DNA of 64,000 nucleotides from Octopus vulgaris (lineage: Eukaryota). The position numbers and the translations under genes are program-made. Shown piece after piece: positions 2,137-44,082 of this stretch. A model generated the notes under the pieces. The model was not told where the DNA came from. It saw only the letters and a list, made by a program, of their open reading frames with translations, and did no database searches. The DNA is taken from the NCBI GenBank assembly GCA_951406725.2, contig OX597815.1, forward strand, positions 122,512,001 through 122,576,000, written 5' to 3'. Position 1 is the first letter of the stretch; each line of letters begins with the position of its first letter.

Positions 2137-2210
2137 TTTAATTCTTGAAAATAGAAATTATAGGATTACATACCTGGGGTGTAGAAAATTAAATCATAAC
2201 TTTGGTAAAT
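2137..2210 (-). promoter_or_regulatory. Conserved AG|GT (recursive-type) splice block, site 2 of module C
   Basis: Minus strand tgatttaattttctacaccccAG|GTATGT (junction 2174/2173). A ~70-bp block nearly identical to 27897-27970 and 43824-43897. Confidence 0.6.
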
Positions 2211-2414
2211 CATTCATAATTTTAAAATTTAATACCTACTTCCTCTGTTGAATAACTGTAACCTTTTATGTTCTTCTCACATAAGGATACACATTACCAT
2301 AAATGTTAACCATAACTGATATACAAGCTATGGTTCTGTAGTATTGTAAATGGTACATGTGGATTATAGAGATTGAATTTGGTATCTGGTAACAGAAATT
2401 CAATTCAAAAACGG

Positions 2415-2440
2415 GCAACTTACCTGAAATAAACAAAAAG
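2415..2440 (-). promoter_or_regulatory. Conserved AG|GT (recursive-type) splice site 1 of module C
   Basis: Minus strand ttttgtttatttcAG|GTAAGT (junction 2424/2423): a consensus acceptor directly followed by a consensus donor. Confidence 0.65.
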
Positions 2441-2769
2441 AGTTAAGTGAAAGAGACACATTATTAAAAGGAAACATATATATATTACATCTAACAAATT
2501 ATTCAACAATACAAGACAAACTATAACAGTAAATTCATTTTAAATATCTTAAAAATGTAAATTGCAACACAAAAAAAAAAACAGATTATAAATTTCTAAA
2601 AGAAGGGTAAATAATTGTTTAGTAAAAAAAATATTTATAATGACACAAAATGTAATAGTAACAGTAAAAAGTAGCCATTAAATATTCTGTAATCAAATGT
2701 GACATGAAGAATTCACCAAAACATAAGTTGGCTGTTATATATATATATATGTATATATATATATATATA

Positions 2770-3236
2770 TTAAAGGAAATAGAGAAATACAATTGATGTA
2801 TTATAAATTTATTAACAAATTAATATAATATAATTATACTATAAATTGATATAATATAAAAATTAAATAAAATTAATATATAACCTACAATTTGTTTCGA
2901 TTCATATCCACATGTGAATTTATAAAAAAATCACATTTATGTATATGGACCTCGCCAGGATAATGTTTGTCTAAAAAATAGACAAAAATTTCATGCAAGG
3001 ACTGTTAAGTCATAAAATTTTTGTACATTTTTTAGACAGATATTACCTGATGAGATCCATATACATAAATTCACTAGCGGATATGAAACGAAACAGATTG
3101 TAAGATATATATTTGTTTTATTAATTTGTTATACTAAATCATATTACATTATATGTTTTCATAGTATAATTATATTATACTATAATGTTAATAAATTTAT
3201 AATATGCCAATTGTATTTTTCTATTTCTTTTAATAT
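2770..3236. mobile_element. ~470-bp imperfect palindromic element with a hammerhead-like core in each arm (probable Penelope-like inverted terminal-repeat remnant)
   Basis: Arms are reverse complements about a centre near 3000 (e.g. gaaatacaattg...ttataaatttattaaca vs tgttaataaatttataa...caattgtatttt). Plus arm has CTGATGA 3047-3053 ... GAAAC 3090-3094 ... GTA; minus arm has CTGGCGA ... GAAAC ... GTA. Abuts a (TA)n tract. Confidence 0.6.
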
Positions 3237-3430
3237 TTACTTTTTTTTAAATAATACCATTTTAAGTTCTGATTTTTCTCTCTACTTCTCTACTATATTG
3301 TGGTATTTAACTGAAGAACCAGAGAAAGTTGGATGTTTTCCATCCCTTTAAAAGAAATTGACTCTTCCTTGGATTATATAATTATTATTATTATTATTAT
3401 TATTATTATTATTATTATATATATATATGT

Positions 3431-3669
3431 GGAGGCGCAATGGCCTAGTGGTTAGGGCAGCGGACTTGCGGTGGGAGGATCGCGGTTTCGATTCCCAGAC
3501 CAGGCGTTGTGTGTGTTTATTGAGCAAAAAAAACACCTAAAAGCTCCACGAGGCTCCGGCAGGAGGTGGTGATCCCTGCTGTACTCTTTCACCACTCTAA
3601 AGGCGGTGCTCCAGCATGGCCGCAGTCAAATGACTGAAACAAGTACAAAAAAAAAAAAAAAAAAAAAAA
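3431..3669 (+). mobile_element. tRNA-derived SINE with poly(A) tail
   Basis: Pol III A-box TGGCCTAGTGG and B-box GTTTCGATTCC. Head matches 42266-42430; tail (aaggcggtgctccagcatggccgcagtcaaatgactgaaacaagta) matches 50457-50502. Confidence 0.8.
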
Positions 3670-3996
3670 TATATATATATATATATATATATATATATAT
3701 ATATATATATATATATATATATATATATATATATATATATATATATATATATATATATATATATATATATATATATATATATATATATATATATATATAT
3801 ATATATATATATATATATATATATATATATATATATATATATATTATATATATATTATATATATTATATATATATTATATATATATATATATATATATAT
3901 ATATATATATATATATATATATATATATATATATATATATATATATATATATATATATATATATATATATATATATATATATATATATATATATAT
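3670..3996. repeat. (TA)n microsatellite
   Basis: ~325 bp of near-pure AT dinucleotide. Confidence 0.97.
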
Positions 3997-4104
3997 TTTA
4001 TCAGAGCTAGAGGATGAAAGAATTCCATGGTTGCCTCTATTGCAGATTTTTTCTGCTGCAACAGTGGCAACATGAAATTCCTTCATCCTCTAACTCTGAT
4101 AAAA
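3996..4104. repeat. ~110-bp inverted repeat (hairpin)
   Basis: ttttatcagagctagaggatgaaagaattccatggttgcc ... ggcaacatgaaattccttcatcctctaactctgataaaa. Confidence 0.8.
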
Positions 4105-41185: not shown

Positions 41186-42047
41186 CTAATATAAATTAAA
41201 TAATTTTTAAGAAAATATTCTCAAAACATCTTTAGTATCTAGTCTCCATATTTATTTATAATGCCTGAAAACAAAATAATTATTTGGTCTCAAATGAAAA
41301 GCAAATAATTATTTTACAAGAAACAATTGAAAAAAAAATCCATTATTTCTTCCATTGTTTTCTGAGAAAATAAATTATTTACATTATAACTGTAATTTCT
41401 TTTGTGTGTCTGTATCTAGTATTTTATTTTGCATATGTTTAAATTAGTCTCATACAGTGTCTAGAAGGGTTTATGCATCATAATTTCAATGCAATTAAAC
41501 CAGAAGTCATCCTCAGATGTCTTCTTCCCTGGTAACTAAACTGCGATTGTCTACCTTTATTTGTCATCATATTTTTGATTATTTTTTTATGTATACTTTG
41601 AATTGATTGTGTGCAGAAGAAAAGGAGAAGCCATATTATTTTTGATTATAATAATGTTAGGGTATTGTATTAAATTCATTTATTGTATACAAATATTATG
41701 CCTCTTATGTCCAAATTTTCTTTCAAGACACTTACACTCTGTCGTTCATGACAGGCATTGCACATCTAGCAAAGCATAGTAGCTTCATTTCTTTCAGTCC
41801 TACACATGCCCTTCAGCAGTCACAGCCCATGTTTCACTGTCATGTAGCATGGCTGTTCACACAGAGGTATCATACAATTTGCCTTTCACTCTGAGGGAGG
41901 GGCCCTTTGTTACCAACAGATGTAGGAGCTAGGAGGTAGGTATATATATATATATATATATATATATATATATATATATATATTGATAAAACGGTAAGAT
42001 AACAAAAGAAAGAAAGAGACCTCAATATTATGTAAATAGAGGAAATT

Positions 42048-42198
42048 TATCTATACAATATGTTACATTACTCGGTAGTCAAGATAAAACTCTGAATAGC
42101 CAGATAACCGAAGAGATGGTGTTGTGGATTTCCACTTCGGCATCTGAAACTCAGAGTTTTATCTTGACTACCGAGTAATGTAACATATTGTATAGATA
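42048..42198. repeat. Perfect 48-bp inverted repeat with 55-nt spacer, between (TA)n tracts
   Basis: 42048-42095 is the exact reverse complement of 42151-42198. Confidence 0.95.
42102..42164 (+). ncRNA. Type I hammerhead-ribozyme-like motif
   Basis: Stem I AGAUAA/UUAUCU; core CCGAAGA (U4C variant); stem II GAUG..GUGGA-UU-UCCAC..CAUC; GAAA; stem III ACUC-A-GAGU; cleavage triplet GUU at 42156-42158. Confidence 0.55.
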
Positions 42199-42265
42199 TA
42201 TATATATATATATATATATATATATATATATATATATATATATATATATGTGTGTGTGTGTGTGT

Positions 42266-42650
42266 GGAGGCGCAATGGCCCAGTGGTTAGGGCAGCGGAC
42301 TCACTGTCGTAGGATCGCGGTTTCAATTCTTAGACCGGGCGTTGTGAGTGTTTATTGAGCGAAAACACCTAAAAGCTCCACGAGGCTCCGGCAGGGATGA
42401 TGGTGATCCCTGCTGTACTCTTTCACCACAACTTTCTCTCACTCTTACTTCCTGTTTCTCTTGTACCTGTATTTCAAAGGGCCGGCCTTGTCGCTCTCTG
42501 TGTCACGCTGAATATCCCCGAGAACTACATTAAGGGTACACGTGTCTGTGGAGTGTTCAGCCACTTACACGTTAATTTCACGAGCAGGCTGTTCCGTTGA
42601 TTGGATCAACCAGAACCCTCGTCGTCGTAACCGACAGAGTGCTTCCATAT
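42266..42650 (+). mobile_element. tRNA-derived SINE
   Basis: A-box TGGCCCAGTGG and B-box-like GTTTCAATTC; head nearly identical to 3431-3595. Confidence 0.8.
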
Positions 42651-43823
42651 CCCATATATATATATTGTTGTGTCTGGGGAAAGTCATTCTCTTTTAGTGC
42701 CCTATAATTTAACACACTCACCAGTAAAATTTCCACTTATTTCTTTCATATATATATATATATATATATATATACATGTACATATGGTGGCTGCCCCCTC
42801 GTTATTGAGTATGGCCATTGCACGAAGCTTAATCAATGTTGTTATCATGCAATGCCTGTGCAAGAAGATTTTTTTTAAAGTGAGGAAAGGCTGTGCACTG
42901 AGTCAATCCCACTCACTAAGCAACAGTAGCCATAATCCGAAAAGAAGAACAAGTCAACATCATCAGTAACCACTGAGCCGCAGGTTTTATGTCAGAGTTA
43001 TCCCAGTTACCTGAGTTGCCTTCTAGATGGATGCCCTAACAAAGGCTAGGAGTCCTTCACTCCCATTGGTTTAACCGTGCGATCAGGTATTCAGTCTGAT
43101 TATTTCTATGTCCCCACGCATGATACAGCCTTAAGACATTTATTGGATGGCTGTTGACTCTCAAGAGTTCCTCCGCTCTTTGACGGGTTTTGTTTTTCAT
43201 CCCGTAGGGTGTCCAATAAACACCCTCCTCACCAAGCAAGCTTGGTGGGGTTGCCGGTTTAGTCGCCGACGACCCGACTATGCAACAGTTTGTACTGGGT
43301 TACATGTTACCAGTAGTACTTGAGATATACATACATATATACATATTCATACAAATACATAAAGAGCAAAAGAGAGAGAGAAAAGTATATATATTATATA
43401 TATATATATATATATATATATATATATATAAGTATGCATATGTATGTATGTATGTATGTATACATATAAAAATACATGCATTTAATTTATAAATATGTGT
43501 ATGTTTTTATGTGCATACCACAGCAAACATTAATTGTTGAAGTCCTAAAATTGTTTTAAAAAAACAGTGATATTTGTACTAAATTATGGCTTTAACAATT
43601 CTTTTATTTTTAGTATTGTCTAAAAAAAAAGCTAAATATTCCACAACTTTCAGACTTAGCCTTTTATAATTTTGTCAGGCAAAATAATATGAAGACAGAC
43701 CAATATATATTTCATAAATAATAAACAAAAATGTGAGTTAATATCTGAAAATAAAAACTGATTAAAAGAAATTAATTTTAAATCAAGAATGATTCAATTT
43801 TTACTTTACCTCCTTAAAACACA

Positions 43824-43897
43824 TTTTAATCATTGAAAATAGAAATTATAAGATTACATACCTGAGATGTAGAAAATTAAATTATAATTTTGGTAAG
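43824..43897 (-). promoter_or_regulatory. Conserved AG|GT splice block, site 2 of module A
   Basis: taatttaattttctacatctcAG|GTATGT (junction 43862/43861). Confidence 0.6.
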
Positions 43898-44051
43898 ACT
43901 TTGAAATAAAGTTTTTTTTTTAATTTAATACACACATTCTGTTGAATATCTATAATTTTTTCTCACATATGTATAAGTAATGATACTGCAGAAGAATAAA
44001 TTATGTAGACTCATTTTGACATCCGATAACAGAAATTTCACCAAAGAAATT

Positions 44052-44082
44052 GGTATCTTACCTGAAATAAACAAAAAAAAAA
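44052..44082 (-). promoter_or_regulatory. Conserved AG|GT splice site 1 of module A
   Basis: ttttttttgtttatttcAG|GTAAGA (junction 44062/44061). Confidence 0.65.

Follow-up and report, generated by a model that had tools for sequence, protein, structure and literature searches.

Ratchet points that carry a cryptic recursive-splicing exon (RS-exon) have been described in the Drosophila genes Ubx, kuz and Bx, with a conserved AG/GT core (the slash marks the splice junction), a poorly conserved, out-of-frame exon, and a donor downstream of it (PMC8605326, bioRxiv 10.1101/006163, PMC6110457). In the sections of the reports drawn on here, fly RS-exons measure about 50 nucleotides (nt), mostly less than 100 nt, and lie in long introns (PMC8605326, PMC6224609). 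Vertebrate RS-exons, of the CADM2 type and repressed by the exon junction complex, are joined first, which creates a donor in competition with that of the exon itself, and partial inclusion is possible (PMC6224609). A pseudo-exon in rat alpha-tropomyosin, a muscle gene, serves both as a decay exon and as a zero-length exon (PMC2773006, PMC5126111). Here we describe a comparable arrangement in a gene of Octopus vulgaris that, judged by its domain order, is a titin-family giant muscle protein gene. The window is a stretch of 64,000 nt (G000:C2:122512001-122576000) of the 2.8 Gb genome, and we examined it together with 200 kb of each flank (464 kb in all).

The gene lies on the minus strand and contains four tandem modules, three inside the window and the fourth just outside, each consisting of a splice-like site 1, a segment of 200, 242, 250 or 290 nt, a splice-like site 2, an intron of 1.4-3.6 kb, a giant exon and a conserved block of ~350 nt. 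We hold with moderate confidence that every module carries a stop-containing hidden exon whose acceptor and likely donor are used in RNA, and that this exon likely works as an RS-exon. The motifs had been proposed in an initial annotation, which placed site 1, TTTATTTCAG/GTAAG, at window positions 44061, 28174 and 2423 and site 2, TTTAATTTTCT.CA.C.CAG/GTATGT, at 43861, 27932 and 2173; all six were found there, on the minus strand. Its segment lengths of 200, 242 and 250 nt were correct, as were the stops in all three frames of the 2174-2423 copy (6, 7 and 3) and the distances of 1.4-3.8 kb to the giant-exon acceptors, which lie 2876, 3844 and 1647 nt downstream of site 1 and 2676, 3602 and 1397 nt downstream of site 2 in modules 1, 2 and 3. 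In module 4, the 290-nt segment separates site 1 at G000:C2:122502800 from site 2 at 122502510, and the giant-exon acceptor is at G000:C2:122499266. Site 1 is an acceptor directly fused to a donor (YnCAG/GTRAG) within the intron in four of four modules.

Sequencing contigs of four runs (X1, X2, X5 and X8, from three studies) of 24 listed were aligned to positions 26900-34700, an interval that takes in module 2 and the final stretch of giant exon 1, with modules 1 and 4 beyond it. None of the 24 runs is recorded as RNA, but X1 holds spliced junctions and so contains RNA. One X1 contig (joint 28171/33197, depth 47.5) skips 5025 bases with CT..AC ends, which is a canonical GT-AG intron from the giant-exon donor at 33199 to site 1 at 28175. 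The contig consists of 28 letters of exon end, positions 28171-27931, and 26 letters lying elsewhere. Its match ends two bases (GT) past site 2, which fits site 2 being spliced to an exon whose first letters are GT, a property shared by all four giant exons; we infer the partner from this pattern, and GT followed by 26 letters recurs in a loose end whose letters correspond to the beginning of giant exon 3. A second X1 contig (joint 27968/33197, depth 54.4) carries module-3 letters at 27936 and 27938 and overlaps the giant-exon end by exactly GTA. As site 2 would share GTAT and a giant-exon start GT, this contig fits a join at site 1. By bin arithmetic it covers 27897-27968 and is therefore unspliced through site 2: the upstream intron is gone and the downstream intron retained, as would be seen in a recursive intermediate. 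In X8, a piece of module-3 type (depth 22.2) covers this place too, and no joint is listed for it. The claim of a functional acceptor at site 1, directly followed by a strong donor, is borne out in X1, with a giant-exon donor joined to the 28174 copy directly and to the 2423 copy by paralog-specific letters.

The loose end lies at 33198 in X1 and represents one giant-to-giant junction. Because only 1 of 25 bases distinguishes the end of giant exon 1 from that of giant exon 2, both site-1 joints and the giant-to-giant joint have no assignable upstream exon, and back-splicing stays among the candidates for the X1 joints. The contig of the giant-exon end has a depth of 2514, intron contigs 30-36, and both cryptic forms ~2% of the giant-exon depth, contig depth being a poor measure; between 27683 and 28987, X2 and X5 are almost without coverage. 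Giant exons serving as terminal exons with a 3' untranslated region are not favored, the contig past the donor having a depth of ~30 against 2514 within the exon and the donor being spliced; the frame past the giant-exon donor meets a stop after about 20 codons in modules 1-3. Intron contigs of X1 and X8, from two studies, both end at window position 28971, with flanks lacking a clear poly(A) signal.

The two sites had been read as successive ratchet points. Site 2 instead behaves as the donor of the 242-nt segment in RNA, and no joint into it was among those listed for any of the four runs (0/4), a count of low power as site-1 junctions occur in X1 only and contigs drop rare forms. The fusion of acceptor and donor, the poorly conserved out-of-frame exon, the downstream donor, the junction into the acceptor and the low inclusion match the known RS-exon layout, and the pair is therefore taken as one ratchet with a cryptic-exon donor; two ratchets are probably not present. 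The annotation had also held that segments appearing as ordinary exons in mature mRNA would speak against its model. The segment does appear spliced, but at low level and with stops, as a leaky RS-exon does.

In the likeness to Drosophila, as far as the cited portions go, the AG/GT core, the poorly conserved out-of-frame exon, the downstream donor and the junction from the upstream exon into the site are shared. The fly sites are mostly one per long intron, near its middle, with RS-exons of ~50 nt, whereas the octopus has one RS-exon per duplicated giant exon, of 200-290 nt with detectable inclusion, placed 1.6-3.8 kb before the giant exon in introns of 8.9, 7.4 and 8.3 kb for modules 2-4 and about 34 kb for module 1. 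Vertebrate RS-exons are described for very long introns or annotated coding exons, with no link to giant exons in the part of that account consulted (PMC6224609). The rat alpha-tropomyosin pseudo-exon resembles the octopus unit in having an acceptor directly followed by a donor and in leading, when included, to nonsense-mediated decay, and according to the excerpts used is not a long-intron device (PMC2773006, PMC5126111); it is single copy in a vertebrate, whereas the octopus unit is fourfold and in a module with exons of 4-16 kb. The novelty lies in the setting, a mollusc gene in which every duplicated exon of 4-16 kb has its own putative RS-exon, in introns of 7-9 kb; the mechanism itself is known. 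Among open-access titles and abstract starts we found no subject matching recursive splicing in molluscs, and open-access literature listings gave none linking it with titin, a giant exon or sallimus. If true, the model extends recursive splicing to molluscs, and four natural replicates pairing a stepping-stone exon with a 4-16 kb exon make a small, testable system.

The four copies allowed us to compare the sites with their surroundings. The flanks show a mean pairwise identity of about 0.6 and 32% four-way invariance, whereas the longest invariant runs of the four-way alignment are CAGGTATGT (9) and CAGGTAAG (8). In agreement with the observation that the surroundings of site 2 are more conserved, 49 of 68 gap-free columns are invariant against a background of 0.32 (binomial 2e-11, uncorrected for window choice), symmetrically so with 25/35 columns upstream and 25/34 downstream. 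At site 1 the core alone is conserved (11 of 16 columns from -10 to +6), and positions +0 to +30 are at background level (11/29); GTAAG after the acceptor is invariant in four of four copies with the exon body at background identity. Conservation above the flanking intron was thus found, in a comparison between four paralogs. Intron sequence between the modules is homologous at about 65-80%, so the copies are not independent; the modules are products of tandem duplication of intron plus giant exon, and the motif pair in front of every giant exon is a single event, copied three times. Even so, the copies have the age to be informative, and the conservation of the splice motifs exceeds carry-over from duplication.

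Acceptors were scored with a matrix from 75 Fn3 exon acceptors picked automatically in this gene, some of which may be wrong; for donors we used the energy of the duplex with the 5' end of U1, which is a crude proxy. Relative to these acceptors, the percentiles are 52nd-97th for site 1 (81st in module 1), 12th-60th for site 2 and 4th-25th for the acceptors of the giant exons; site 2 scores above 92-99% of intronic AGs. The giant-exon donors are weak (U1 -5.6, in the weak quartile of 54 Fn3 donors with a median of -6.95), while the donor regenerated at site 1 reaches -9.4 to -10.5; for the site 2 donor, three modules give -9.9 and the remaining one -8.3. By this proxy the regenerated donor is stronger than that of site 2 in modules 3 and 4 and slightly weaker in 1 and 2. 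Among the 75 Fn3 exon starts in this gene, 9 begin with GT and none with GTAAG. Scanning the 464 kb for AG/GT sites with loose thresholds gave 15 sense and 13 antisense sites, with all 8 module sites among the 15; at an acceptor score >=4 and U1 <=-9.9, a cut-off read off the table after the fact, six sites remained, every one a module site, and none on the antisense strand. Genome-wide, the perfect ratchet consensus had at least 10 matches, compared with at least 1 and at least 2 for rearranged controls and at least 2, at least 2 and at least 6 for reversed patterns; this excess, of small counts and without gene models, is a weak hint.

In the RS-exon model, the weak donor of an upstream giant exon is first joined to site 1, as shown for module 2 and suggested for module 3 by the paralog-specific contig, both in one run. 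Site 2, 200-290 nt downstream, would define the cryptic exon, and the join would recreate a strong donor, TAG/GTAAG; in most cases this donor would then be re-spliced, over 1.6-3.8 kb, to the acceptor of the next giant exon, so that an ordinary giant-to-giant junction remains. Alternatively, as seen at low level in module 2, site 2 may be used instead and the exon retained with its premature stops, with nonsense-mediated decay predicted. Recognition of many-kilobase internal exons is poorly explained by exon definition. The purpose of the relay may be to exchange a weak, regulated donor for a strong one near the weak acceptor of an exon that, at 4-16 kb, would be too long for definition across its length. 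The four module exons lie 7-34 kb from their natural upstream donor and 1.6-3.8 kb from site 1; three other large exons of the gene (1.5, 3.5 and 4.2 kb), at distances of about 1.4, 3.8 and 2.9 kb from their upstream donor, are without such a site. This fits a need for a strong donor within about 4 kb of the acceptor of a giant exon, though it is a correlation on few cases and the gene often has introns of such sizes. A fifth large exon measures 4 kb and lies outside the window; its upstream intron is 7.4 kb long, and 0.85 kb before the exon there is only a moderate AG/GTGAAT site, of a grade also found in the antisense control.

Several observations weigh against this model. The splice junctions come from one of four runs (one of three studies), in contigs only guessed to be RNA, and the partner of the site 2 donor, represented by 26 letters, is a putative one. 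All RNA observations fit a plain cassette exon spliced 5' to 3' equally well; re-splicing would leave no trace in mRNA, no lariat was seen among the contigs, and the contig surviving for module 2 is the included form and not the unspliced intermediate. Fly RS-exons are shorter than this exon, and introns of only 7.4-8.9 kb in three of the four modules fall short of the >~10 kb that is typical, if not strict, for long host introns. On the crude measure, site 2 has in modules 1 and 2 a donor (-9.9) as strong as the regenerated one (-9.4), unlike fly ratchet donors, which usually win by strength. The acceptor-like, conserved 35 nt upstream of site 2 (25/35 columns) are not needed by the model and are its main unexplained feature.

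A plain poison cassette exon, in which occasional inclusion of the stop-containing exon leads to decay and normal mRNA skips it directly with no re-splicing, would account for all RNA data, including the included form in the X1 contig, for stops 63-201 nt before the exon end and for a strong site 2 donor with a conserved block on both sides; the included exon also brings a premature stop upstream of a later junction, as expected of a poison exon. We nevertheless consider it unlikely, since the invariance of GTAAG in 4/4 copies above an exon body at background, and a GTAAG start like none of 75 ordinary exon starts, are left unexplained. That stretch upstream of site 2, acceptor-like at the 12th-60th percentile and conserved at 25/35 columns, would instead suit tandem ratchets, with splicing from the upstream donor to site 1, then to site 2 as both acceptor and donor, and on to the giant exon or the next module. 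This we regard as a rather poor prospect, given that no listed joint leads into site 2 in the four runs, against two site-1 junction contigs in X1, that site 2 behaves as a donor in RNA, that conservation is symmetric around it as for a regulated donor, and that its acceptor score in module 4 is only 0.6.

Inclusion could also end the protein after a tail of 28-51 residues and give shorter titin isoforms, the exon being an alternative C-terminal one. The incoming frame is indeed open for 44, 46, 51 and 28 codons (shuffle p 0.024, 0.019, 0.014 and 0.094), over 43928-44059, 28035-28172 and 2269-2421 of the minus strand in modules 1-3 (44-51 codons). Yet the peptides are unconserved, with module 3 shifted by one base relative to modules 1 and 2, a similar openness is found in an unrelated part of the alignment (column 381, minimum 31 codons), and the exon is spliced onward so that the transcript does not end there, all of which makes such an exon very improbable; a protein search with the cryptic-exon peptide gave no match (0 of 1 candidate). 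Neutral carry-over, that is, a chance AG/GT pair copied with the module and used as splicing noise, would agree with the paralogous, non-independent copies and the low usage, but the splice motifs are the longest invariant runs despite about 40% pairwise divergence of the flanks, and we give it hardly any credence.

Beyond the RS-exon model itself, an extended and decidedly tentative possibility, more doubtful than not, is that recursive splicing serves not for shortening long introns but as a relay making the giant exons spliceable and selectable: splicing would take the local exon or jump to the next site 1, setting the length of the titin spring stepwise, with the stop exon acting as a safeguard and perhaps a second halt at site 2. 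Each of the four giant-exon acceptors is itself AG/GT (TTAG/GTGAT; window 41185, 24330 and 776 of the minus strand, and G000:C2:122499266), and joining there regenerates a moderate donor (U1 -6.6 after TAG, -8.2 after CAG); by this sequence feature, the giant exons could be expressed RS-exons.

Other origins and partners of the sites were considered and rejected. A microexon ending at either site found no conserved AG <=30 nt upstream (AGs occur at -27 of site 2 in 2/4 copies and at -15 in 1/4). A repeat family is rejected as the site 2 pattern matches the genome four times, in the four modules; a DNA search with 501 nt gave 3 module matches and 4 short ones, missing module 4, and the site 2 pattern had no match in metagenome contigs. 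Of 15 duplex tests for docking and selector pairing of the Dscam type, two reached p<0.05, but in differing targets and modules and without consistency, and the consensus hairpin around site 2 was weak (-1.7 kcal/mol, 10 pairs, one with two-sided change). A third acceptor-like motif, TTTCAG/ATA, lies 110-170 nt behind site 2 in three of four modules (window about 43715, 27750 and 2048, minus strand), and no RNA joint to it was among those listed for module 2.

Table 1. Coordinates of the features in the window.
Feature	Position	Strand	Remarks
Giant exon 1	33200..41185	-	7986 nt, phase 1-1; donor use shown by RNA contigs
Giant exon 2	8152..24330	-	16179 nt, phase 1-1
Giant exon 3 start	1..776	-	5175 nt in total, extends beyond window
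Conserved intron block behind giant exon 1 donor	32850..33199	-	71-81% between modules; YGCY-rich, one TGCATG
Module 1 site 1, putative ratchet point	44057..44086	-	polypyrimidine tract and CAG/GTAAG; first exon base 44061
Module 1 putative cryptic RS-exon	43862..44061	-	200 nt with stops in each frame; assigned from homology to module 2
Module 1 site 2, conserved block around CAG/GTATGT	43826..43896	-	donor starts at 43861
Module 2 site 1	28170..28199	-	first exon base 28174; acceptor use in RNA; joining regenerates TAG/GTAAGA
Module 2 cryptic exon	27933..28174	-	242 nt; low-level inclusion (contig of 295 letters, depth 47.5)
Module 2 site 2 block	27897..27968	-	donor GTATGT from 27932; donor use suggested by contig departing from genome after CAG-GT
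Module 3 site 1	2419..2448	-	first exon base 2423; acceptor use suggested by module-3-type contig
Module 3 cryptic exon	2174..2423	-	250 nt
Module 3 site 2 block	2138..2208	-	donor starts at 2173; unspliced in junction contig (depth arithmetic)

The gene runs from DUF7799 and spectrin-like exons through I-set Ig domains and the low-complexity giant exons to more Ig domains and a long Fn3 run. Pfam had matches in 6 of 8 gene segments, the two segments without being those of giant exons. Sallimus-type proteins of the titin family have the same domain order around low-complexity giant exons, and we presume a likeness to Sallimus from domain layout, orthology to Sallimus or titin being putative. 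The closest protein relative, Argonauta hians GAB1610542.1, joins two such modules at the same phase-1 junction; it was chosen from six inspected among 75 protein matches, the other five looking like ubiquitin-repeat or unrelated proteins, and the start of giant exon 1 had no match among 1512 longer candidate proteins. All four giant exons, the last of 4413 nt, are phase 1-1 and multiples of 3; giant exon 1 encodes Glu/Lys/Val/Thr/Pro-rich repeats between a weak acceptor, TTAG/GTGAT, and a weak donor, TAG/GTATCT.

The block behind each giant-exon donor (window 32850-33199 and 7800-8151, minus strand, with two copies outside) contains 9 YGCY and 2 GCATG per 350 nt against a background of 2.4 and 0.3, which are candidate MBNL and Rbfox motifs. 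About 170 nt into the block is an invariant acceptor-like TGTCTCTTTCAG/CTC. Reading through the donor of giant exon 4 gives a hydrophobic tail of ~70 residues (G000:C2 about 122494640-122494855, minus strand, L009), whereas modules 1-3 stop after ~20. For the exon upstream of module 1, translation past its donor yields a C-terminal tail that is Cys-rich and transmembrane-like (L029, about 75250-75400 in extended window coordinates, minus strand), a possible membrane-anchored short isoform as predicted from the translation. The Fn3 exon run (L023-L027) contains near-identical repeated multi-exon blocks, a second tandem expansion in the gene. Inside a long intron, at window 58046-59692 of the minus strand, lies an open frame with a reverse-transcriptase-like stretch, presumably of Penelope type by its look.

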